Shown one piece after another: positions 8-36,031 of a stretch of DNA of 64,000 bases (position 1 is the stretch's first letter; the number at the start of each line of letters is the position of its first letter). Source of the stretch: a virus (taxonomy: Duplodnaviria > Caudoviricetes); the IMG/VR virus record IMGVR_UViG_3300027715_000010, positions 1 through 64,000 of that record. One strand, given 5' to 3'. The notes beneath the pieces are model-generated. The model made no database searches and was not told where the DNA came from. It saw nothing but the letters and a program-made list of their open reading frames with translations. Position numbers and translations under genes: made by a program.

Positions 8-721
8 ATGAAAACATTTAAAGTATTTTTAAAAGAAGGCAAACTTAACGAAGCTGGTGATATACTTGCTAACTTAAAGGCCTTGGACAAAAACGTTAGA
101 AAGATTATTGAAACTATGAAATATGGTTCTTTATCTGGTTATTCAACACGTTTAGAGAATGGCTGGAACAACATTATGAAAGCATCTAAGTATAACAATA
201 GAGCTATGATTGATTTTAAAGATGTTATTGGCACATTAACTTATTTGGTTTCTAATAATAAAGGACCAGCTAGTGCAGCAAAAACATTAAAAGCAAAATT
301 AATGGCTGCCGAAGGTTTAGGTGAAAGCAAACTTAATGAAGCATCTCTTAAAGATGAAATCAGTGGTTTAATTCTAAAACTAACAGACAGAGATGTTAGT
401 GGTAACTTATACGACATTAGAAAAGATTTAGAAAAAGATCCAAAATCACATAAGTTTACTAAAGACCAAATTAAAACTGTTGAAGGTGCTATTGAAAGAT
501 TAGCATCTAATTGGTATTTAATTCGCAGTAAAGGCTTAAGTCGTGGTGTTATGAAAGAAGTTAATGCTGTTGTAGAAGCAATAAACGATTTACGTCATCA
601 ACTAACTCCTGATTTACAAGGTGAATTAAGATTAGACCAAAGATTACTAAGTGGTTTAATCAATTCAGTAAATAAAGTGTTAGATGCTGCTCGTAGCGGT
701 AACTATAACATATTAGGATAA
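8..721 (+). CDS. Putative internal head protein / polyprotein with capsid-targeting leader
   Basis: N-term MKTFKVFLKE resembles the T4 IP leader (MKTYQEFIAE); internal KLNE sites fit gp21 (L/I)-x-E specificity. Confidence 0.6.
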   Translation: MKTFKVFLKEGKLNEAGDILANLKALDKNVRKIIETMKYGSLSGYSTRLENGWNNIMKASKYNNRAMIDFKDVIGTLTYLVSNNKGPASAAKTLKAKLMAAEGLGESKLNEASLKDEISGLILKLTDRDVSGNLYDIRKDLEKDPKSHKFTKDQIKTVEGAIERLASNWYLIRSKGLSRGVMKEVNAVVEAINDLRHQLTPDLQGELRLDQRLLSGLINSVNKVLDAARSGNYNILG

Positions 722-725
722 AACA

Positions 726-1004
726 ATGATAAAAGAATCCCATAGATCTGGTGATAAAGTTGCTTTTGATAATATCAGTGGTGGTATAGCTATTGAGATG
801 GTACCAGCTAATCCAAAAGAAGATTTTGAAGCACACTGTATTCTTAGCTGCTTTGGTAGTATCGGTGGTAATCCTTATAAATTAGTTGCAAAAGGTAAGG
901 ATTTATCTGTACTAACAAGACAAATACAAAACGATTTACTTAATGCAGCCAATAAACTAGATGCAGAAGTAAAGTCTATTATGAACAAATATGGATTTAA
1001 GTAA
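726..1004 (+). CDS. Hypothetical protein, possible internal head protein (MIKE leader)
   Basis: ORF tightly packed in the IP-like cluster; very short I-x-E leader. Confidence 0.45.
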   Translation: MIKESHRSGDKVAFDNISGGIAIEMVPANPKEDFEAHCILSCFGSIGGNPYKLVAKGKDLSVLTRQIQNDLLNAANKLDAEVKSIMNKYGFK

Positions 1005-1006
1005 AA

Positions 1007-1543
1007 ATGTTTAAAGTGATATTAAAGGAAGTTAGTACAAAACCAAGTCTTGATTATTATCTAAAATCTGAAAAAGAAAATGCGTCAAAATTGGAAACTA
1101 TAAAGAAAACACTAACAACTGAAAGATCCAAGTTAAACAAAAGTATAAACGATATGACTTCTGATAAGGTTCTTAAAATATTTGACAAGCATATATTTAA
1201 TACTGGTAATCTTAATTATCACGATATAAGTTCCTGGTATAATAGTATCAAGGTTTCCTTAGAAGAAATTAAAAGAATATGGGAAGATTATAACCGTGAT
1301 ATAATTAAGAACTCAGGAATACTATACAGATTTGAAACACCATTTCGTAGATTACATAACTTACAACCAAGATTAAATAATATAGATGATGTTTTTACGG
1401 AGTCTGGTATAAATAGTAATAATCTAGACAAATTAGAAAAAGATATCAATAGTTATACTGATATTGCACAAAGACAATATAATTTAATGATTGATAGAGA
1501 CGTTATATCACACGAATTAGAAAGATTAAAGGCAAAACAATGA
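1007..1543 (+). CDS. Putative internal head protein
   Basis: N-term MFKVILKE leader; helical body. Confidence 0.55.
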   Translation: MFKVILKEVSTKPSLDYYLKSEKENASKLETIKKTLTTERSKLNKSINDMTSDKVLKIFDKHIFNTGNLNYHDISSWYNSIKVSLEEIKRIWEDYNRDIIKNSGILYRFETPFRRLHNLQPRLNNIDDVFTESGINSNNLDKLEKDINSYTDIAQRQYNLMIDRDVISHELERLKAKQ

Positions 1544-1767
1544 AAAGCTTTAATAGATTCTTAAACGAAGCCAATGATGGTGAACCAGAAAAGTACTATG
1601 TGATAGCTAAAAAGTATCGCAAAGTAAGTGAAACCAACCTTGGCTCTTATCCTGATAGTGATACTGCGCAGTCCAAAATTAAAAGTCTGCGTGATATGTC
1701 AGCTGATAAAGAAGACGAATATACTGAATATAAATCTGTTAAAGCTTCAACTTATGATAAGGAATAA
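1540..1767 (+). CDS. Putative internal head protein
   Basis: N-term MKSFNRFLNE leader; body resembles the C-terminal module of 32916..33806. Confidence 0.6.
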   Translation: MKSFNRFLNEANDGEPEKYYVIAKKYRKVSETNLGSYPDSDTAQSKIKSLRDMSADKEDEYTEYKSVKASTYDKE

Positions 1768-1770
1768 AAT

Positions 1771-2130
1771 ATGTTTAAAGTTGTACTAAAAGAAGATATC
1801 AAATCTGACTTTGCTAGATTATTCAACTCATATAAGACTATTATTGGCAATCTAATGTCAGATAGAGATCTAGTTGGTGGTGAATTATTAAGTTTTGCTA
1901 ATGATTATATATCTGTAATCCAACCAAAAGTAAGTAAAGGACAATCTATACCAGAATCCGAAGCTTATGGGTTAAAAGCAAATATCAGCCAGATACTTAA
2001 AAGACTTGAAAAATCAAATAGTCCTAAGGTTAGTCAACTTGTAAAGAATCTATCTGGAATCTACTCTGATTTATCAAAACTTATTAGTGCAAAGGCATTT
2101 ATAAAAGAATCTAAGTTAGTTATAAAATAA
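1771..2130 (+). CDS. Putative internal head protein
   Basis: N-term MFKVVLKE leader; C-term FIKESKL. Confidence 0.55.
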   Translation: MFKVVLKEDIKSDFARLFNSYKTIIGNLMSDRDLVGGELLSFANDYISVIQPKVSKGQSIPESEAYGLKANISQILKRLEKSNSPKVSQLVKNLSGIYSDLSKLISAKAFIKESKLVIK

Positions 2131-14271: not shown

Positions 14272-14279
14272 TATAAATA
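14272..14279 (+). promoter_or_regulatory. Late promoter TATAAATA
   Basis: Upstream of RBS GAGGT and ATG 14300. Confidence 0.8.
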
Positions 14280-14299: not shown

Positions 14300-15100
14300 A
14301 TGTATAAAGTAAGAGTATTAAAAGAAGATAGTGTATCTGGTATATTACAGAAGATAGACACTACCATTAAAGGTAAAGAGTTTTCTAATAGCAAGATACT
14401 AGCTTCAGATTATTTTAGATTTATTGCCAAGTTTCTACCAAATATACAGAAAAGTATTAATAGCCTAGATCCTTCTGACGTCAGCAGCGGTAAAGTTGCA
14501 TCTGACTTAAAGGTTGTTATCAACTTAACTAATAAGACTATAGACAGTATCAACAAAGATATTAGTGCTCCAGTAGATTCTAATCTTAAAGTATCTGTTT
14601 TATCAGTTCTAAAAGAATTATTAACTTTCTTAAATACACAAAGTACCAAAGTTACTAATGCAATCAATGACTATAATAAGAACGCTGTTAAGATAGATAA
14701 AGTTGAGCATACTACGGATAAGGCAACTTTAGTTGTAGCCAAAGGTAAAAGATTCTGGGTACAAACAAAATGGATAAAGAATAATACAGTTTCTCAAAAA
14801 GTATTTGACAATGCTTTACCAGTTAAATCAAAAGAAGAAGTCTCAGCAGATAATAAGAAAATGTTACCAGCTAAAATAGTCTGGGAAAATGATAAAGCTG
14901 TTGGTTATGATATAGAAGTCAGTTGGGCTTCAAGTCTACGTAAAAGAGTTAGAATCTTCTTACCGAAATCTATGTCTGGTGGTAATACCGGTGATGTCTA
15001 TACCTTTCCAAAATGGTTACTTACAAAATCACTAGAGCAAAAGATGGAAGGACAACCTTCTGGCTGGTTCGTATCAGATTCACCTTGGCAGATCTTTTAA
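14300..15100 (+). CDS. Late-expressed putative internal head protein
   Basis: MYKVRVLKE leader; own late promoter within the early region. Confidence 0.55.
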   Translation: MYKVRVLKEDSVSGILQKIDTTIKGKEFSNSKILASDYFRFIAKFLPNIQKSINSLDPSDVSSGKVASDLKVVINLTNKTIDSINKDISAPVDSNLKVSVLSVLKELLTFLNTQSTKVTNAINDYNKNAVKIDKVEHTTDKATLVVAKGKRFWVQTKWIKNNTVSQKVFDNALPVKSKEEVSADNKKMLPAKIVWENDKAVGYDIEVSWASSLRKRVRIFLPKSMSGGNTGDVYTFPKWLLTKSLEQKMEGQPSGWFVSDSPWQIF

Positions 15101-25980: not shown

Positions 25981-25988
25981 TATTTATA
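25981..25988 (-). promoter_or_regulatory. Late promoter TATAAATA directly upstream of tRNA-Ser
   Basis: Overlaps the stop of the upstream gene; 5 nt from the tRNA 5' end. Confidence 0.75.
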
Positions 25989-27471
25989 CAAGGTTATAAG
26001 TCCATCTAATTTTACCACAATCCCAAACACGTAAATAACCAAGTTCTAATGCTTTTTGATGCTCAGTCTCACCAGGTTTACAACCTAGAGCTTTTCTAGT
26101 CATTGATTGCTTAGGAAATCTTAATTGCTTAGTTCCTTCTACAAAGTATGAATAATCACGCTTATATTCTACTTCTTTAATAAAACCAAGTTTTTCATAA
26201 ACATTACCCGTAGACCATCTATTATCTGACCAGCTGATTATCTTTTTATACTTAGAACCATATTCTTTTACGAAAGCTTGCAATAATCTAGAAGCACCAC
26301 CAATAACAGTAATACCGTGTACAAATGCTAATCTATTCAATACGATAATAGACTTATCATTGTTTCTATGATGTAAACCAAAAGATATAACACCAATTAG
26401 TTGTCCATTGTATTCTAAACCATAAGCATAAAGGATACTATTTGCTTCACCTTGTATATGATTATCTTCAAAGAACTTATTAGCTTGATACTTTTCAAGT
26501 TGTTTTATTGCACACTTTCTAGCATATACAACTTCTGAAGTACCGACAATAGAAAATAAAAAGTTCTTTACTTGATTTTGTTTAAGTAACCACTCGTCTT
26601 CAAAGATGGTAATTAGTCTATAACCTTTTTCTTGACACTTTTTATACTTTTCCCAATGATAAACATCATTACATCTAGTCAATTCGTGATGCCAGTATAA
26701 ACCACAGTATTCTACAGCTATTTTTTTGTCGTGGTCAACCATATCTAGTTCTTTATTACCAAGTATAGAATAATCACTTTTTACAAAATTACCACCAATA
26801 CTATTAAGATAATTACGAACTTTGTCTTCTGTATATTCTTTGTTTGGATCTCGTTGAATAAATGTAGTACCAAATCTATCTAAACGTGTCTGTAATGAAC
26901 GCTTTACTAATTCTGGGTCTGCCTGTGGATAATAACCATTAACTTCTTTGAAGTCATCAGCGTATTTTTTCATAGCCTTACCAATAACTTCTTTATGTGC
27001 TCTTAATTGTATATCATTTTTTACCAACCACTTCTTTACTGTAGAAGGTGTCGTTTTATAAGTTCTGGCTATATCTGATTGAGATTGTAATTTATTGTGA
27101 TACAAATCATATAATACATCTTTAGAAGGCACCTCTCTGTAATTATATGCGTGTCTATACACTTGTCCGGGGAAGCCGTAGTACTTACACCTGTCCTCCA
27201 CTAACCATACACTGAGACCCGTTTCTTTTGCAATCTGTGAGTATGATTTGGCATCTACTACACGCATCTGATATAAGGCATCTTTTGATATCTTGATTTC
27301 GGTCTTATCAATTCCATCAGAATCTGTGAATAATCCCTCTGGCCTCATTAGAACCTTTCCGTCAATAAGGATTTTTGTGATAGTCTTGCGTGGTATTCCA
27401 TATATCTTATTGAGTTGAGATATGGTCTTGCCGGACTTGTATTCTGCTATTATGTTATCTATGTTTTCCAT
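25984..27471 (-). CDS. Hef-like putative homing endonuclease (HTH repeats + PD-(D/E)XK domain + GNAT-like C-term)
   Basis: Repeated HTH segments; ELD......KIAVEY.GLYWH, RLITIFEDEW, GGASRL, SWSDNRWS.G.VY.KLGF, R.WDCG; start moved to ATG 27471. Confidence 0.75.
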   Translation of the reverse strand: MENIDNIIAEYKSGKTISQLNKIYGIPRKTITKILIDGKVLMRPEGLFTDSDGIDKTEIKISKDALYQMRVVDAKSYSQIAKETGLSVWLVEDRCKYYGFPGQVYRHAYNYREVPSKDVLYDLYHNKLQSQSDIARTYKTTPSTVKKWLVKNDIQLRAHKEVIGKAMKKYADDFKEVNGYYPQADPELVKRSLQTRLDRFGTTFIQRDPNKEYTEDKVRNYLNSIGGNFVKSDYSILGNKELDMVDHDKKIAVEYCGLYWHHELTRCNDVYHWEKYKKCQEKGYRLITIFEDEWLLKQNQVKNFLFSIVGTSEVVYARKCAIKQLEKYQANKFFEDNHIQGEANSILYAYGLEYNGQLIGVISFGLHHRNNDKSIIVLNRLAFVHGITVIGGASRLLQAFVKEYGSKYKKIISWSDNRWSTGNVYEKLGFIKEVEYKRDYSYFVEGTKQLRFPKQSMTRKALGCKPGETEHQKALELGYLRVWDCGKIRWTYNLV

Positions 27472-27478
27472 AGTACTA

Positions 27479-27507
27479 TATATAACACATTTAAGACATA
27501 AAGTCAA
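27479..27507 (-). promoter_or_regulatory. Early/middle sigma70-type promoter, probably leaderless
   Basis: TTGACT-N17-TATATA, 7 nt before ATG 27471, no SD. Confidence 0.7.
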
Positions 27508-27510
27508 GAC

Positions 27511-27545
27511 AAAAAAAGGATCCGATATTTTCATACCGGATCCCC
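27511..27545 (-). terminator. gp23 terminator
   Basis: GGATCCG...CGGATCC + T7. Confidence 0.88.
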
Positions 27546-27576: not shown

Positions 27577-28920
27577 CTAAGCTAAGTTTAATACACGGAA
27601 TTTTCTGTAGTAGTGATTTCCGTGTGTAACCAAGTTAGAGTAAGGGTTAGCAACGATTCCGTAACGTGTCTTATAACCCACTACAGGCTGTAATGTTTTA
27701 GGGTCTACAGCTCTTAATGCTTCCAATGGAACGTAAGGGCAATAGAATAAACCAGCATCATAAACGTTTGAACCTTTATAACCAACAATAACTTCATTGT
27801 AAGTTAAATATGGGTCAATGAATACTTTGTAGTAACCATTGAGCATACCAACGAAAGTGTTACCAGTATCATCTACTGTTAAGTTGCTTTCTAAAGCTGG
27901 AGCATAAACCAATTTACCTGTGAGATTTAAAGCACTTGCTACATCAGATGAGCAGATGATAGTGTTACCACGACCTCTACGAGTATCTTTAGCAATGCTG
28001 TTAGCTACACGGTCAATGTAGAATAGCAATGATTTGTATTTTTCAGCTGACCAACGACCATCACTGTTTACGTCAAGGTCAAAAGAACCAGCAGCACTTA
28101 ATACAGGGTCACCAGCACTATCTTTTACAACAGAACCGTTTGAGTATTGAACTGTAGCAACTGATAATTTAGCAATTCTACGGATCGTTTCAATAACTTC
28201 ACGATTGATTTCAGCAAGAATTTCTGTGCTTAAGATTGTTGACAATTCAGATTCTGCATCCAAACCGTGAACTGATTTAAGATCTTGCATTAATTCAATG
28301 GTGTAGTTAGCTTTCAAACCACGAGAACCAGCAGATACTGATGTTTTCTCAATAGTGAAGCCCATTTCGCCCCATTCTTTATCCCCAGAAGTACCACGAC
28401 CTAATGTTTCAGCAACATCAGTGTACATTGAAGTACCTTCTTGATAGTTAGGATAACCAGGGTTATGTGTACCAGTACCAGAATATGAAGCGTCAATGTT
28501 TGACATAAAAGCTTCGTTTGGTGCTACACCGTTTGTCTGCCAAGTAGTTGTTTGAGAACCACCAGCATTGAAACCAGGACGAGCATCACCAGGAGTACCT
28601 AATGGACCGCTAGCAGGTGAACTTGATAAGATTGCGCGCATTGCGAAAATCAATCCAGTTGGACCTGTCATTGGTTGAACAGAACAAACATCGTAAGCAA
28701 TCAAGTTAGGCATTGCACGACGAACTAATTTAATCAACACTGGATCTACGATATCAACTTGTGCAGTACCAGTAGCTTCGGTAATCACAGAAGAACCATT
28801 TTTTTGGCCTTTAACTGTGTTTTCAATGAGCTGAGCAACAACATTTTGACGATGGCTATCTTTAATACCAGCCATATTCAATTCTTTTACTGCTCCCCAT
28901 TTTTTTGATAATTCAGACAT
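27577..28920 (-). CDS. gp23: Major capsid protein
   Basis: DPVLI.LVRRAMPNLIAYD.C.VQPM.GPTGLIFAMR, HGLDAE.EL..IL..EI.AEINRE, GRW..EK, YDAG.FYCPYVPL, KTRYG. Confidence 0.98.
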   Translation of the reverse strand: MSELSKKWGAVKELNMAGIKDSHRQNVVAQLIENTVKGQKNGSSVITEATGTAQVDIVDPVLIKLVRRAMPNLIAYDVCSVQPMTGPTGLIFAMRAILSSSPASGPLGTPGDARPGFNAGGSQTTTWQTNGVAPNEAFMSNIDASYSGTGTHNPGYPNYQEGTSMYTDVAETLGRGTSGDKEWGEMGFTIEKTSVSAGSRGLKANYTIELMQDLKSVHGLDAESELSTILSTEILAEINREVIETIRRIAKLSVATVQYSNGSVVKDSAGDPVLSAAGSFDLDVNSDGRWSAEKYKSLLFYIDRVANSIAKDTRRGRGNTIICSSDVASALNLTGKLVYAPALESNLTVDDTGNTFVGMLNGYYKVFIDPYLTYNEVIVGYKGSNVYDAGLFYCPYVPLEALRAVDPKTLQPVVGYKTRYGIVANPYSNLVTHGNHYYRKFRVLNLA

Positions 28921-28942: not shown

Positions 28943-30157
28943 CTATTTACTAAAAGCTTTCTTAACCAATTCAACATCAGAATCTACTGACTCTTTAATA
29001 ACAGCTTTTGATTCTACGATAGTTGGTTTTGAATTCTTATTAATATAACCTTCTTTCAATGCTTTTACTTTAGCAGCAAATTGCTTTGCGTCTTTGTAAG
29101 ATACATTTTCTGAAAGTTGTTTTAATTTCTCAGCTTGAGTTGCGCTTAAGCCTTCAGATAATGACTTAACAACCAATAGCTTTTTAGCATTGATATGTGC
29201 TTCTGATAACTTAACCAACTTTGCGTGATTTTCATTTAATCTCTTTGCTAAGTTTGCATTTCTTTCTGACAACTGTCTTAAAAGATTCGTTTTGTTAGCT
29301 GGTACAGTGATATAATGATTTTCAAGCAATGTTTTCAAACCACGAACCAAAGACTCGCTGAGCTGATTACGAACACCTTGCTCTAAAGCAATGCGATTCT
29401 TGTTAGCCCATTCTTTAGCTGTATAACTTAAGTACTTATCAACATTTTCAGTTAATTTTGACTTTTGTTTCTTTACAGCTTCTTTAAGAACTGCGTTTAC
29501 TTGTGGTTCTAAATTCTTTACTTGTTTACGAACTTGGTCACGAACTGCATTCTCAAAGATTGCTAATGCTTGTTTCTTGAAACCTTCGGTAAGTTTTTGA
29601 CCTTTGAATAAAGCATCAAAATGCTCTTTAATTTCAGCATCTTCTTGCTTTTCAGCTTCTAGGTCTTTTTCTTCCTCTTCATCAAATACGATTTTAATAC
29701 CGTCTTCTTCTGACTCATCTTCCTCAGATTTGATTTCTGCATCTAATTCGTCTTCGTTTTCTTCGGTCTTAAGTTCGTCTTTGTTTTCTTCTTCATCAGC
29801 TTCTTTGATGGTGTCTTCGTCATCTTTTGAACTGATTTCGTCTTCTTCAGTGATTTCTTTGTCGTCAAGATCTGCTAAAACATCTTCTTCAGATTCTTTT
29901 ACATCACCGAAATCAAGAACAACGTCGTCTTCTTCAGATAATTCTTTATCTAAATCTTCTTCGTTTTCTTCGGTCTTAAGTTCGTCTTCTTTTACTTCAG
30001 AATCTTCTTCTTCCTTAAGCTCATCAGCTTTTGGCTCTTCAGATTCGTCTTCTTCAGTAGCAAGGAGATTTTCATCTTCCTCGTTTTCTTCAGAAGCAAG
30101 GACTTCATCGTCTTTCTTTACGATTTCGTCTTCTTCTTTGAATAACTTTCTTGCCAT
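28943..30157 (-). CDS. gp22: Prohead scaffolding core protein with long acidic N-term
   Basis: L.E.FK..A..IFE.AV, VD.YL.Y...EW...N..A.E.G, GL..L..NHY..VP; position between gp21 and gp23. Confidence 0.92.
   Translation of the reverse strand: MARKLFKEEDEIVKKDDEVLASEENEEDENLLATEEDESEEPKADELKEEEDSEVKEDELKTEENEEDLDKELSEEDDVVLDFGDVKESEEDVLADLDDKEITEEDEISSKDDEDTIKEADEEENKDELKTEENEDELDAEIKSEEDESEEDGIKIVFDEEEEKDLEAEKQEDAEIKEHFDALFKGQKLTEGFKKQALAIFENAVRDQVRKQVKNLEPQVNAVLKEAVKKQKSKLTENVDKYLSYTAKEWANKNRIALEQGVRNQLSESLVRGLKTLLENHYITVPANKTNLLRQLSERNANLAKRLNENHAKLVKLSEAHINAKKLLVVKSLSEGLSATQAEKLKQLSENVSYKDAKQFAAKVKALKEGYINKNSKPTIVESKAVIKESVDSDVELVKKAFSK
29751..29988 (-). repeat. 31-bp direct repeat in gp22 (29751..29781, 29958..29988)
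   Basis: TCTTCGTTTTCTTCGGTCTTAAGTTCGTCTT, encodes DELKTEENE twice. Confidence 0.85.
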
Positions 30158-30216: not shown

Positions 30217-30885
30217 TTAGTTTCTTGCGAAACCTTCCATTAAGCTTCTGAAAAGTTTTACACTTTCCTCTTCAAGTTGCTTACTGGATATTGTTTTAAT
30301 ATGCTTTTTTGCTTCATCCATTTTCTGGCAAGCTTTTTCTTTGTAGATACCCTTTATAGCATCGTATACCCACTCTCTACCTTCCATCAATCCTTCAACC
30401 AAAGCACTTGGAGCTGATGGATCTGATACGATATCTACAGTAACTAGATGAAAGTCATCTTGCACTTCTGCGGCACCATTGTTTAACATTTTAATGGAAC
30501 CTAAACCTCTTGAAGACACACCTAATTGAATACCTTCTTTAATAAGAGCCTTTACTAACTGACCGTTGGCAGTATCTAATATCTTTGCACGACCTACGAT
30601 ATCATCACCACTAAACTCTAATGCTTCAATTAAATGAGAAGCACGGTCTAATTGGATATTTGGTGAGTCACTATGCTCTAATTCACCTAATGCTCTACGT
30701 GTTGCAATCATATCTTTAGAAAAACGAGCTACCTCATTTTCCATAATCTCTTTTGGATAGATACGACCATTTTGGTTCTTTATGTTTGATTGCATAAAAA
30801 TACCTTCAATAAAGAACTTCTTCTCGCCGTTCTCTTCTCTATTAAGTGTATTTACGTTTTGCTTAAACTCTTTAAGAAGCTTCAT
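30217..30885 (-). CDS. gp21: Prohead protease
   Basis: IEGIFMQ...KN.NGRIYP, RALGELEH, LGVSSRG.GS, D.V.DPSAP.A...G.MEG.EW. Confidence 0.97.
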   Translation of the reverse strand: MKLLKEFKQNVNTLNREENGEKKFFIEGIFMQSNIKNQNGRIYPKEIMENEVARFSKDMIATRRALGELEHSDSPNIQLDRASHLIEALEFSGDDIVGRAKILDTANGQLVKALIKEGIQLGVSSRGLGSIKMLNNGAAEVQDDFHLVTVDIVSDPSAPSALVEGLMEGREWVYDAIKGIYKEKACQKMDEAKKHIKTISSKQLEEESVKLFRSLMEGFARN

Positions 30886-31036
30886 TTGTAATATCCTTTA
30901 GAAGATTATCCGATACTTGCATTCTTATATTATCAATCTCAGATAATGCTCTATTTGCTAATTCTTTAGTAACTAAACTATTGTCGGGATTTTGTCCCTT
31001 AAATACTTGTTTCATAATAGTATTTATATTATCCAT
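30872..31036 (-). CDS. gp67-like prohead core protein, second copy (54 aa, missed by ORF track)
   Basis: Hand-translated MDNINTIM...ELANRALSEIDNIRMQVSDNLLKD; RBS AGGTG; aligns to 31045..31233. Confidence 0.65.
   Translation of the reverse strand: MDNINTIMKQVFKGQNPDNSLVTKELANRALSEIDNIRMQVSDNLLKDITNEAS
31021..31028 (-). promoter_or_regulatory. Late promoter TATAAATA (gp21)
   Basis: Consensus inside the small ORF, upstream of gp21. Confidence 0.6.
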
Positions 31037-31044
31037 AATCTCAC

Positions 31045-31233
31045 CTATTTTTGAAATGGTTTCTTTGTAGGAATATCAAACGTGCCAAAGTCTTTCATTA
31101 AACTTTCTGCAGCTTGAGAACGTATAGAATTAATAGTATCTATACTTTTCTGTGCCATAACTTTGTTTACGTTATCTTCTAACGATACTAGATTCTCATT
31201 AGCACAATAACTAACAATTTTACTTAGATCCAT
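31045..31233 (-). CDS. gp67-like prohead core protein
   Basis: Small helical ORF immediately after gp20. Confidence 0.65.
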   Translation of the reverse strand: MDLSKIVSYCANENLVSLEDNVNKVMAQKSIDTINSIRSQAAESLMKDFGTFDIPTKKPFQK

Positions 31234-32839
31234 TTATCTCTCCTATAATCTTTTCTATTTCATCCGTTTGGTCTTCTGTATTACCTAAATCTTCTGCCGC
31301 AGTAGGACTTGCAAGATCTTCCTCAGCGTCATTGGTATCTTGTATTAAAAGATCGTCCTTAGCATTCAATTTTAGAATCTGTGTCTTTACATATTCCTCG
31401 GTGAAGTATTTACCAATATATGGCTGAACGTGCTCTAATAAGGCAATACGATTGGTTAGAATTTCAGCATCCTTTAGTTCTTCAAAATATGAATTGGTAT
31501 TGAACTTAATTACCATTGTATTCTGTAAATCTTCCCAGTCTTCTGGATCTATAACACCAGTAATCAATAGTTGGGTTCTTAGTAAATCGTGAAAGATCTT
31601 AGCAAAACGACTTTGTAAACGATCTATCATCTTACCAAACTTGATTTCGTCACGGGTTATCTCAGATGCTTTACCAAGACTAAATCCATTTTCTGGATTG
31701 ATTCTGCTCAATGGAACGTTTAATGCGCGATACATATTCTTTTGGAAGTAGATCACATCATCTAAATTTCCAAGATTCTGCCCACCAGTTAGCTGAGCAA
31801 CCTCCGTAGAATTCTTACCGTTTCTGCGACTTAACCAGATATCCTCTTGCATACTCATAACTTGTGGTTGCTCTTTGGTCTGCCCGGTTGAAGCATCGTA
31901 AAGCATCTTATTGCGATACTTATGGATTAAGCTTTGAATATATTGCTCTGCTTTAAGTTTTGGTAGATTCTCAACATCAATGTAAAATACACGACGTTCT
32001 GGTGCCCTTGTAATACGATAGATAACCAGTGAGTCTTCCATCATTCTCATTTGGTTAATAGGTTTAATCGCTTTATGTAAATAACTAATAGGAAACTTTT
32101 TAATTTCTGTTGAAGTGCCAGGAGTACTAATCTGCACGTTCTTAACTTCAAAGTATGAATATAAACCAGAAGTTGCATAAGCTACACTTTCTATTGGTAG
32201 CATAATACCTTGCGCTTGTGAAGCTAAAGCATTGGTTGCATAAACAAAATGCTCATTGATAGTTTCAAAAACAGTCATACCGTCTTGCTGACGTTCTGTC
32301 TGATAGGTAGCAACTTTACGAATATCGTATGGTGATATTGGTCTGACTTCAACAATACCATCTTTTAAGTTTTCTTTATTCGTGATAATCTGAAAGTAAA
32401 TACGGCCATCTACGTAAAACTGTCTAAAGTAATCATATCCATCAACGTTGAACTTCATAAGCTTTAGAATATGGTCAAAAGCTTCGTGGATCTTCTGTTT
32501 TACTTCTTCTGAATACTTTTCTTTATCTAGGTAATCTAATATAAGATGTATTGGGTAAACATCTTCGTCTTTTACAATAGCTTCGCAAACAATATCATCT
32601 ATAGCATTGTCTACTTCTGGATGCGAAGTTAACTCACGATAAGTTCTAATTAACTGGGATTCTGAGTCATTTTGAGGATTGAAAGTTAGTGTATAACCAA
32701 TAAAGCCAGCAGCCATATTGCTATTATCAATAACATAAGAAGCATCCGTTGTTGGAGCAACTACAGATGGGTACTTCTTATCATCTATAAATCTTTCACC
32801 ATTTTTATTGAATAACTTAAAACCTTGCCAACTTGCCAC
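31220..32839 (-). CDS. gp20: Portal protein
   Basis: LI..YR....HPEVD.AI.DIV.EAIV, YVDGRI, SYLHKAIKP.NQ.RMMED..VIYRI.RAPERR.FYIDV. Confidence 0.98.
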   Translation of the reverse strand: MASWQGFKLFNKNGERFIDDKKYPSVVAPTTDASYVIDNSNMAAGFIGYTLTFNPQNDSESQLIRTYRELTSHPEVDNAIDDIVCEAIVKDEDVYPIHLILDYLDKEKYSEEVKQKIHEAFDHILKLMKFNVDGYDYFRQFYVDGRIYFQIITNKENLKDGIVEVRPISPYDIRKVATYQTERQQDGMTVFETINEHFVYATNALASQAQGIMLPIESVAYATSGLYSYFEVKNVQISTPGTSTEIKKFPISYLHKAIKPINQMRMMEDSLVIYRITRAPERRVFYIDVENLPKLKAEQYIQSLIHKYRNKMLYDASTGQTKEQPQVMSMQEDIWLSRRNGKNSTEVAQLTGGQNLGNLDDVIYFQKNMYRALNVPLSRINPENGFSLGKASEITRDEIKFGKMIDRLQSRFAKIFHDLLRTQLLITGVIDPEDWEDLQNTMVIKFNTNSYFEELKDAEILTNRIALLEHVQPYIGKYFTEEYVKTQILKLNAKDDLLIQDTNDAEEDLASPTAAEDLGNTEDQTDEIEKIIGEINGSK

Positions 32840-32915: not shown

Positions 32916-33806
32916 CTAAGCCTCTACGTAATAGTATTCTTGGTCTATATTACCAGTTTTTTCAATTTCTTTATTCTTCTGGTCTACAAACTTTTGAGCA
33001 TCTGCTTTATTAGGAAAGGTTTTGACTACTGTTTCTTTACCATCTTCATTGTGATAAAATACAGCAGCTACAGTTCCTTCGTTAAGTTTAGATTCCAGAA
33101 ACTTATTGCTTGGCAATAACTTCTTTAATTGATTAAATACTTCTTTATTACCACTGATAAACTCAATAGATCTTATGGCAAAGTGGTCTTTAAACTTATT
33201 GACTGTTGCTTCAACTGGTTTTTGCATATATATTTTAAGAAAACCAGCATCTGCAGTTTTATCAACACCAGACGTTGAATAGTATTTACGTAAAAAATTC
33301 TTTACAGCTTCTTTATCTTCAGTAAAGTTAAGTCTAATAAGTGCAAATTCTTCTAAACCTTCTTTCAGATTCTTACCTAATAACTGTAATAATCCACCAA
33401 CTGCGATGTAGCAATCAGACTTAATCTTAGCAACTGCTTTCTTAGCATCTGCAGATTCTGGTCTATCTTGAAACATACCAAGGAATCTTTGGATATCAGT
33501 AATATGTTTCATTACTTCCATAACAGATTCTTTTAGTTGCTCATTGGTCATTGTTTTATATTTTACTTTAATGGTAGTCATAAAATCCATAACTTCATCA
33601 AAGTGTCTCATCATTGCGAATACTTCGGATATTGTATTATATTTAGCAAGAACCGAAGCAGACTTATCTAAAACTGGTTCTGCTTGGTGTGCAATCTTAT
33701 CCCAAGAATCGGCATTCTTCTCTATATAATCTTTGGTGCTTTGTACTAACTCAGCTTCCTTGATTATACTTTTATTTTCTTTTATAAATTGTGTAAATCT
33801 CTTCAT
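32916..33806 (-). CDS. Putative internal head polyprotein
   Basis: MKRFTQFIKE leader; internal IIKE, NLKE and FLESKLNE sites. Confidence 0.6.
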   Translation of the reverse strand: MKRFTQFIKENKSIIKEAELVQSTKDYIEKNADSWDKIAHQAEPVLDKSASVLAKYNTISEVFAMMRHFDEVMDFMTTIKVKYKTMTNEQLKESVMEVMKHITDIQRFLGMFQDRPESADAKKAVAKIKSDCYIAVGGLLQLLGKNLKEGLEEFALIRLNFTEDKEAVKNFLRKYYSTSGVDKTADAGFLKIYMQKPVEATVNKFKDHFAIRSIEFISGNKEVFNQLKKLLPSNKFLESKLNEGTVAAVFYHNEDGKETVVKTFPNKADAQKFVDQKNKEIEKTGNIDQEYYYVEA

Positions 33807-33825
33807 TTTAGTACTCTTGCATAGT

Positions 33826-33850
33826 TGGGAGGATCCGAAGACCCTCCCGA
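33826..33850 (-). other. cUUCGg hairpin after gp19, near-copy of the 32887 hairpin
   Basis: GGGAGGGTC-TTCG-GATCCTCCC, no U tract. Confidence 0.7.
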
Positions 33851-33857
33851 TTTATTA

Positions 33858-34394
33858 TTAATTTATATCGTTAGTTGTAAAATGAGTAGCTTGGAACTTT
33901 ACATCAAATTCCTCTACTTTATCCACATCATTCCAATTCAACTTAACAGTGCCGATATCACTTGGCCAAGCATTATGAATTGTATAAGTTCTAATAATCG
34001 TAGAACCATCTACATCTAATTGCTGTACCGTGAGATCTTGCCAGTGCCCTTGTTTTACATCACCAGGGATTCTAGCATTATCTGTGAAGGACATTAAGCC
34101 ATTTTGCCATTGCTCAAAAGCTTTACGAACTTCAAAATCACGATCCAAACGAACACCAACTGACCACTCAATAGAAGGTCTATCACCAGGTATTGCAATC
34201 TTACGACCCATATACTCAACCGTGGTAATACCAGTGGTTAAAGTTGGAAGGTCTGTACTATTACAATAGAAAATAGATGACGTTGTTGGAACGGTCACGT
34301 AAGAAGGAAATGATAATTGTACACGAAAACGATTTGACCTTGCACCACCTTTAAACTGTGCAATAAAATCGTTTATATTTGTATTACTAGCCAT
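33858..34394 (-). CDS. gp19: Tail tube protein
   Basis: GGARSNRF.V, LP........Y.GR.I.I.GDR....W, V.QLD..G...R.Y....AWP..I....L.W. Confidence 0.95.
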   Translation of the reverse strand: MASNTNINDFIAQFKGGARSNRFRVQLSFPSYVTVPTTSSIFYCNSTDLPTLTTGITTVEYMGRKIAIPGDRPSIEWSVGVRLDRDFEVRKAFEQWQNGLMSFTDNARIPGDVKQGHWQDLTVQQLDVDGSTIIRTYTIHNAWPSDIGTVKLNWNDVDKVEEFDVKFQATHFTTNDIN

Positions 34395-34405
34395 AATTTA
34401 TCTCC

Positions 34406-36031
34406 TTAAGCTACTATTTCTTCAAAAGATACACCAGTACGGGTAGCAATGAAGTTTAGTTTAATAAAGTTGATTGAACGAGTTGGCTTAATAAACAAAT
34501 TAGCAACGAATTCATTACGATCTATAACTTCACCAGTATTATTGGTTTCATCGCATATTACGAGATAATCAACAACACCTCTACGACCTTGAACATCTCT
34601 TAAGAAAGGTTCTACCGTATTTATAAATGAGCGTCTTGTTATTTCGTCATTGAACTCAAACAACACATATTTTGAAGCTATCGCGATTGATTTTTCTAAT
34701 GTAATAAATAACATTCTTACATTGATACGGTCAAAAGCACTAGGTTTTGTTTGTAATGTTTTATCTCCATATAGTATAGCACCTTCATTAGGGAAGATAA
34801 CACAAGGATTGATTTGTGATTTGTATAATTCATCTCTTGTAGTCTGTGCTTGTGTATATGCAAACTTAACAACGTTCTTAATACGACCACGATTTAGACC
34901 TGCTGGACTAAACCAAGCATCTACATCGTTAGAAGTTTTTGCCATTAAACCAGCAATATCACCATTGAGTGGAACCCAACGATAAGTATCTGCATAACGA
35001 TCGTATTGATATTTCCAAGTACTATCCATAAATGCATAGTTAGAATTACCATATACGGTTCTTGTCGCTTTTACATTGGTTAAAATTGTACTAATAACAC
35101 TTACGTTTACGCAGTCTGTCTTAGCAGGTGATACGAAAACAACGCAATCTTTTCTTACTTCTGCGATATTATCAATTACCCATTTACCAACTGTAGAAGA
35201 TGCACCACCAACAAATAAGGTAGTTACGTCAACATCTTCAACTGATTGGAATAATGCCCAACCAGCTTCTAAGTCTGCATTAGCTGCAGTAGCACCATTG
35301 GCACCACCTGCTAAAGTTACCCCAGAAGAAGCACCAGTTAACAATGAAGCTTTAGCAACATTGATATATGCTGAGTTAGTTTTTAATCTTTCAACTACAT
35401 AATTTGTAGAACCATCAAAGCGTTTTGCTGTAGATGTTAAAGAAACATCGTCAAAAGTTTCTAATACGGTTCCAGCAGTACCAGTGATATTACCCAAAAC
35501 ATCAACTACTACAATATGGAATTGTGAAGCATCTGGAGCACTATCAAATAGGTCTCTATATGCCCAAGTATAATCACCAGAACTATCTACTACATCAAAT
35601 CCAGCAGTATCGCACCAAGCAACTTGAATAGAATTACCTAGAGCACCTGGATATTTTGCAATCCAAAGATCTGTTGATGTACTAAACGAAGTATTTTCAT
35701 ATTCGTCTTGATTTTTAATTAGTTGACCAGTAGTGCCAGCTGAAGCAGATGCCGTAGCATTCAAAGCACCAGTTCCTACTACGCGCACTAATTTAAGATT
35801 AGTAGCATAAGCTAAGAAACTAGCTGCTGCAAACCAACCTTCATAATTTGAACTTCCTGGTTTACCGAATTGAGAAACGAGGTTTTGCTCGCTATCAATC
35901 GTTGTGATAACATCTACAGGTCCCCAAGCAGCTTCCAATACTGTACCACCATTAGAGGTAGCGACAGCTGGAACGTAAGCTGATTGGTCTGTTTCTGTTA
36001 CTAAAACACCAGGAGATAATTGTGTAACCAT
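34406..36031 (-). CDS. gp18: Tail sheath protein
   Basis: SPGV...E.D, WGP, FGKP, WFSPAG.NRG, RD.LY...INP, GDKT...KPSAFDRINVR.LF, KP.RSINFI.LNF.ATR. Confidence 0.97.
   Translation of the reverse strand: MVTQLSPGVLVTETDQSAYVPAVATSNGGTVLEAAWGPVDVITTIDSEQNLVSQFGKPGSSNYEGWFAAASFLAYATNLKLVRVVGTGALNATASASAGTTGQLIKNQDEYENTSFSTSTDLWIAKYPGALGNSIQVAWCDTAGFDVVDSSGDYTWAYRDLFDSAPDASQFHIVVVDVLGNITGTAGTVLETFDDVSLTSTAKRFDGSTNYVVERLKTNSAYINVAKASLLTGASSGVTLAGGANGATAANADLEAGWALFQSVEDVDVTTLFVGGASSTVGKWVIDNIAEVRKDCVVFVSPAKTDCVNVSVISTILTNVKATRTVYGNSNYAFMDSTWKYQYDRYADTYRWVPLNGDIAGLMAKTSNDVDAWFSPAGLNRGRIKNVVKFAYTQAQTTRDELYKSQINPCVIFPNEGAILYGDKTLQTKPSAFDRINVRMLFITLEKSIAIASKYVLFEFNDEITRRSFINTVEPFLRDVQGRRGVVDYLVICDETNNTGEVIDRNEFVANLFIKPTRSINFIKLNFIATRTGVSFEEIVA

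Follow-up and report, generated by a model that had tools for sequence, protein, structure and literature searches.

The internal proteins (IPs) of T-even phages are a diverse set with only a capsid-targeting sequence (CTS) in common (PMC3012670, PMC9026906). Targeting by the T4 CTS depends on residues 4 and 7, and its processing on residues 8 and 10 (PMC9026906). Read directly from the T4 genome (NC_000866), the leader of IPII and IPIII is MKTYQEFIAE/A and that of IPI is MKTFKEFTSTTTPVSTITE/A, which begins MKTFKEF (a slash marks the actual or predicted cleavage position throughout). Here we describe a set of genes with comparable leaders on the viral contig IMGVR_UViG_3300027715_000010, which is 94,378 bp long with 33% G+C; its first 64 kb, positions 1 to 64,000, are referred to as the window. 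These genes probably encode head-internal proteins of the IP type in a deeply branching, uncultured T4-like myovirus, a distant relative of T4. The principle is already known from T4, and the present case is a distant new instance of it.

Two other groups of phage proteins bear on the comparison. Leaders of 4 to 10 residues that end in (L/I)-x-E are usual in T4 Alt, gp67, gp68, gp22, and gp24, as in Alt (MELITE/L), gp67 (MEGLIE/A), gp24 (MAKINELLRE/S; all from NC_000866), and gp22 (MLKE). These proteins are conserved and their roles are known, whereas the leader genes described here are orphans. In the phages phiKZ and SPN3US, a protease related to gp21 processes many head-internal proteins, among the ejection and inner-body proteins, after the Glu of a short motif; several sites are cleaved in some of them, and proteins that have diverged can have identical N-termini (PMC5694885). 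Those systems differ in their propeptides of about 80 to 130 residues, in the motif itself, and in belonging to jumbo phages that have no recognized gp22 scaffold. The leader-bearing open reading frames (ORFs) of the present contig, named by their length in residues, are as follows.

8-721, plus strand: ORF237, class I leader MKTFKVFLKE/G, then GKLNE/A; mature form basic, isoelectric point (pI) 9.5.
726-1004, plus strand: ORF92, starts MIKE/S; situated in the cluster and preceded by a Shine-Dalgarno sequence of its own.
1007-1543, plus strand: ORF178, class II leader MFKVILKE/V; helical orphan body.
1540-1767, plus strand: ORF75, class I leader MKSFNRFLNE/A; small acidic body.
1771-2130, plus strand: ORF119, class II leader MFKVVLKE/D; basic, pI 9.6, with IKE/S six residues from the C-terminus.
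14300-15100, plus strand: ORF266, class II leader MYKVRVLKE/D; basic, pI 9.6.
32916-33806, minus strand: ORF296, class I leader MKRFTQFIKE/N, then IKE/A.
85072-85344, minus strand: ORF90, class II leader MYKVKLINE/D; a seventh member, outside the window; acidic.
84771-85061, minus strand: a weaker candidate, the ORF next after ORF90, also outside the window; starts MKFVVKE/G.

An earlier note on this DNA had drawn attention to the ORFs that begin at 8, 726, 1007, 1540, 1771, 14300, and 33806, and all of them were found at these positions with the N-termini it quoted. It had read their leaders as capsid-targeting sequences of the T4 type, and the comparison with T4 upholds that reading. The three class I leaders share with IPI to IPIII the 10-residue register M-K-x-aromatic-x-x-F-(L/I)-x-E and keep all four CTS residues 4, 7, 8, and 10; ORF237 and T4 IPI even have MKTFK-F in common. 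The four class II leaders (MFKV[IV]LKE and MYKV..[LI]xE) correspond to the 10-mer minus residues 2 and 3, as is seen when MKT-FKVFLKE is aligned with M-FKVILKE, and when counted back from the Glu they keep all four key positions (aromatic, hydrophobic, L/I, and E). The short leaders of the T4 core proteins give a precedent for this class of 8 to 9 residues, and perhaps for MIKE of ORF92. The only T4 parallel to the latter is the MLKE start of gp22, and the earlier note's suggestion that ORF92 might belong to the set stands only in part: the minimal cleavage motif is present, but the targeting residues are not, so that membership is doubtful.

The match to T4 is well above chance. A motif derived from T4, ^M.{0,3}[FY]..[FILV][LI].E, stands at the start of 5 of 141 genes, whereas its frequency inside the proteins predicts 0.106 (Poisson P ~1e-7), and of its 11 copies in the 29,233 residues of the proteome 5 lie at the extreme N-terminus. 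In control T4-like loci fetched via an unrelated gene, the same motif heads 3 of 2,692 and 0 of 1,830 ORFs (3 of 4,522 in total). Synonymous codons and upstream sequence vary from leader to leader, whereas the four key positions retain their amino acids, so that the constraint acts on the peptide. A RecA/UvsX-like ORF at 75105-76169 also fitted a looser leader pattern and was dismissed as a chance match.

On the contig the leader ORFs occupy four separate sites, one of them in the structural module and one downstream of a lysozyme gene. The largest group is at 8-2130, where four of five adjacent ORFs begin with a leader ending in (L/I)-x-E. These five ORFs are tightly packed, each with a ribosome-binding site, the start of ORF75 overlaps the stop of ORF178 (ATGA), and no promoter or terminator was found inside the cluster. 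ORF237 begins 7 nucleotides into the contig with its frame open upstream, so that its promoter and any earlier start lie beyond view; the upstream sequence did not turn up when viral and metagenome contigs were scanned for exact matches. The start given here is probably the true one, because its AAAACAATG context matches that of ORF92 and ORF75. In a codon-usage frame test the candidates scored 0.23 to 0.44, against 0.36 +/- 0.10 for the known genes of this phage and values near -0.55 for off-frames, and thus they score like real genes.

The partners that such leaders would need are encoded on the same contig, in a structural module on the minus strand, the strand that also carries the terminase genes.

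27577-28920, minus strand: major capsid protein, gp23 homologue, with a propeptide site VITE/A (E48) ahead of the conserved core.
28943-30157, minus strand: T4-type head scaffolding protein, analogous to gp22; it contains 19 (L/I)-x-E sites.
30217-30885, minus strand: gp21-family prohead protease (Peptidase_S77), starts MKLLKE/F.
31220-32839, minus strand: portal.
33858-34394, minus strand: tail tube.
34406-36031, minus strand: sheath.

The protease matches PF03420 at 4.1e-39 and phrog_207 at 7e-72, and its ELxH and GVSSRGLGS motifs, which hold the catalytic His and Ser, align with T4 gp21. The scaffold matches PF25623 (T4_CASP) at 1.1e-51 and phrog_237 at 3e-53. The matching cleavage site that the earlier note had reported in gp23 is confirmed, with its Glu at residue 48 of the capsid protein. 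Homologues of gp21, gp22, and gp23 are thus all present, as in T4. The tail tube and portal genes, adjacent in T4, are here separated by ORF296, an insertion in a late tail and head operon.

A further likeness to T4 lies in gene order. A T4 e-type lysozyme gene (85354-85809, minus strand; PF00959, 1e-40; TATAAATA at 85835) is followed directly and consecutively by ORF90 and then by the MKFVVKE/G ORF, all outside the window. This order mirrors e-ipIII-ipII of T4, in which ipIII and ipII come after e, so that in both phages one member of the set stands directly behind the lysozyme gene.

Further evidence comes from other phages. Environmental T4-like phages often carry the MKTFxxFLxE leader, on ORFs of varied kinds. 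When a degenerate DNA pattern for it was scanned over IMG/VR contigs, at least 119 loci matched; among the matches listed, the match was the start of an ORF of 51 to 451 amino acids in 87 loci, and 31 loci carried two or more leader ORFs. The listed loci hold 37 further leader ORFs beyond the reach of the pattern (e.g., MKTYQEFISE, MKSFKEFLDE, and MKKYSRFITE), the commonest residue after the leader Glu is Ala, as in T4, and the loci carry T4-like core genes. A control pattern of the same size and equal stringency for class II (MFKVxLKE) gave 35 matches, 4 of them at ORF starts, which is the chance level; class II was therefore rejected as a widespread signal and is taken to be specific to this lineage. 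The T4-type 10-mer is thus common to many environmental T4-like phages, and the shortened form is lineage-specific.

The environmental leader ORFs and their close variants are themselves very diverse, range from 51 to more than 800 amino acids, and often stand side by side. Examples among the listed loci are one with four leader ORFs, one with three, and five with adjacent pairs; in some cases a leader ORF separates the genes of the terminase subunits, or those of portal and protease.

Behind the leaders, the bodies of the present set show no significant similarity to one another, in agreement with the earlier note, which had called them unrelated. With the leaders removed, every pair of bodies or modules gave z < 3 in shuffle tests. 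In this the candidates resemble the T4 IPs, which likewise have mutually unrelated bodies, several of them small and basic: four of the seven mature forms here are basic (pI 8.6 to 9.6), against a proteome median of 5.8. They differ in that none of the bodies here has homology to any T4 IP and in being known from genes alone. Searches among 5.8 billion proteins retrieved only ORF237, ORF296, and ORF266 themselves, and an exhaustive HMMER search with ORF237 returned itself and one marginal match (1e-4 over 36 residues). Comparison of all candidates with PHROGs and Pfam yielded sub-threshold noise only, neither tblastn against 50,697 phage records nor blastn of the 8-2130 cluster gave a match, and a search for loci related to ORF237 found none. 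ORF266 had no usable match in the ESM Atlas. A fold search with the ORF296 model returned only generic helical bundles (Z <=10.9, below the level that is meaningful for bundles), and the model had no match in BFVD at E <= 0.001. The bodies are, as far as their sequences indicate, fast-evolving orphans. T4 offers two precedents for what they may do, namely DNA-associated head filling and counter-defence.

By analogy with T4, we infer packaging, cleavage, and injection as follows. The leader of 8 to 10 residues would bind the protein to the gp22-type scaffolding core during prohead assembly. The gp21-type protease would then cut after the Glu of (L/I)-x-E, releasing the mature protein inside the head, from which it would exit with the DNA at infection. 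The expanded arsenal proposed in the earlier note survives as a set of several members, but its size is modest, with seven candidates in an incomplete 94-kb genome (a gene is cut at the far end of the contig) compared with IPI to IPIII and Alt in T4. What sets this phage apart from T4 is the occurrence of seven or more candidates together with a second, shortened class of leader.

Several observations weigh against the assignment of these genes to head-internal proteins. ORF75 and ORF90 differ from the basic IPs of T4 (PMC9026906) in being acidic, and outside this phage the IMG/VR pattern scan revealed no counterpart of the class II leader. The lack of homologues in the searches above means that conservation of the leader cannot be traced against divergence of the body within the lineage. 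Expression timing is a further point. The late promoter that the earlier note assigned to ORF266 corresponds to the T4-type late-promoter motif TATAAATA at 14272-14279, 28 nucleotides upstream of the gene. The same motif, however, has 33 copies in the 94 kb, where about 30 are expected from base composition by our estimate, and the promoter of the 8-2130 cluster is beyond the contig end. Because of this chance frequency and this missing promoter, late timing is supported only for ORF266, through the placement of the motif ahead of that gene.

How the longer members might be processed is a separate question. The earlier note had pointed to ESKLNE/A in ORF237 (residues 106-111, nt 323-340) as a junction between two units of a polyprotein. 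We add that ESKLNE also occurs in ORF296, as ESKLNE/G (residues 238-243, nt 33078-33095). Single-sequence AlphaFold models were made of both full-length proteins and are of low confidence, with mean predicted local distance difference test (pLDDT) values of 52 for ORF237 and 54 for ORF296. The model of ORF237 has two helical units with a coil at 101-110 between them, which holds LGE/S and ESKLNE/A. In that of ORF296, residues 15-146 form a helical domain and residues 155-238 an alpha/beta domain, with a coil (147-154) between them that holds LKE/G and LEE/F; next come a linker of low confidence (238-245) with ESKLNE/G and a small C-terminal domain (247-295, pLDDT 77-91), so that only the C-terminal 50 or so residues are modelled confidently. 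A fold running continuously through the ESKLNE linkers was not seen in these models, where the linkers are coil or of low confidence, and all three predicted inter-domain linkers carry (L/I)-x-E.

ORF237 and ORF296 may be cargo polyproteins in which one leader serves two or three unrelated modules that a gp21-type protease separates, a proposal that we make tentatively and rate somewhat below an even chance. The protease would cut the linker sites ESKLNE/A, ESKLNE/G, and LKE/G, yielding two pieces from ORF237 and three from ORF296. We give about an even chance to the alternative that both proteins are packaged by means of the leader and their internal sites stay uncut, each remaining a single multi-domain protein. 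This alternative draws on the frequency of the sites, as (L/I)-x-E occurs 377 times in the 29,233 residues and the counts in ORF237 and ORF296 are close to the chance expectation. ESKLNE was rejected as strong evidence by itself: different proteins of the proteome have 47 six-residue words in common, which makes its double occurrence weak evidence for polyproteins, and the two copies differ in their Ser codon (AGC versus TCT). The low model confidence counts on the same side, as does the lack of significant similarity of the modules to one another or to ORF75. Shuffle tests rejected homology for every module comparison tried, among them ORF75 with the C-terminal module of ORF296 (z = -0.3) and unit 1 with unit 2 of ORF237 (z < 3, like all remaining pairs), and the fold matches were weak (phage proteins of 53 to 55 amino acids, E ~0.2).

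Against the uncut alternative stands the placement of the sites, which fall in all three predicted linkers (ORF237 101-110; ORF296 147-154 and 238-245), the non-helical stretches of lowest confidence. The pattern [GS]KLNE, moreover, occurs three times in the whole proteome, always in ORF237 or ORF296 and once directly after the leader. T4 provides a further contrast, since mature IPI, IPII, and IPIII hold no internal (L/I)-x-E, and IPIII has none beyond its leader site despite its 193 residues (NC_000866). This suggests that exposed sites are normally avoided, or selected against, in single-module internal proteins unless cutting is tolerated; in the phage described here, internal sites are found at the predicted linkers. 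The polyprotein proposal of the earlier note is therefore left with the sites in three of three predicted linkers in its favor, and with low pLDDT, the 47 shared words, and the lack of a stand-alone homologue of any module against it.

Two explanations do without packaging in the capsid altogether. The shared N-termini could be remnants of common descent, the genes being diverged paralogues, or they could form an amphipathic helix that contacts a membrane or a partner. Four leader genes are indeed adjacent, as tandem duplication would leave them, several bodies are helical and similar in composition, and there is a marginal BLAST match between ORF178 and ORF237. We nevertheless consider this quite unlikely, as the bodies are dissimilar in shuffle tests while the leaders are nearly identical, and the leader matches the experimentally defined CTS of T4 at each position. 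Moreover, the same leader heads unrelated ORFs of 51 to 451 amino acids in many other T4-like contigs, and the members on this contig are scattered over four sites, among them the structural module and the neighborhood of the lysozyme gene. The similarity could instead act in RNA, as a shared translation-initiation region or a recombination cassette; AT-rich, A-rich starts favor translation, and ORF237, ORF92, and ORF75 share the AAAACAATG context. Although mobile regulatory cassettes have been described in T4-type phages (PMC2839356), this explanation is very improbable, as the leaders vary at synonymous sites and upstream while the key amino acids stay constant, and the shared pattern stops exactly at the protease-type site. 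The reading as head-internal proteins of the IP type is thus preferred.

The lineage to which these genes belong is isolated. None of 50,697 sequenced phages has a capsid protein more than 48% identical to the one encoded here, and in IMG/VR and JGI metagenomes no neighboring gene has a relative closer than 47%, the upper bound for the RuvC-like neighbor of the cluster; for the tail tube the bound is 29%. The RuvC-like gene itself (within 2226-2828; phrog_159, 9e-21) encodes a Holliday-junction resolvase and comes directly after the 8-2130 cluster. Immediately ahead of its start codon, a copy of TATAAATA at 2226 and a 12-bp hairpin (2229-2259) overlap, and the gene is likely a late-controlled functional counterpart of T4 endonuclease VII. 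On the minus strand, the gap between portal and protease (30886-31219) holds two small ORFs of about 53 and 37 amino acids, the first with LSE/I, at the position where T4 carries its prohead-core genes 67 and 68. A 516-amino acid gene resembling HNH homing endonucleases (25984-27534, minus strand) lies directly after the major capsid gene; in T4, genes 23 and 24 flank the homing endonuclease gene segD. A GC-rich hairpin whose loop is UUCG (gggagggtcTTCGgatcctccc) occupies the interval 33807-33857, which separates the tail tube gene from ORF296.

Proteins carried in the head enter the cell ahead of any phage gene expression, and T4 IPI* disarms a restriction nuclease. The leader allows such cargo to be listed from sequence alone, even where it consists of orphans in uncultured phages, and here it flags seven or more candidates in a lineage that has no cultured relative. 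Cuts at the linkers, if they occur, would add a polyprotein mode of cargo loading, one that T4 does not use and that would allow injected effectors to be loaded and shuffled in compact form. Because the leader is common in environmental T4-like phages, the orphans that it tags are sensible candidates in a search for new counter-defence or host-takeover proteins.

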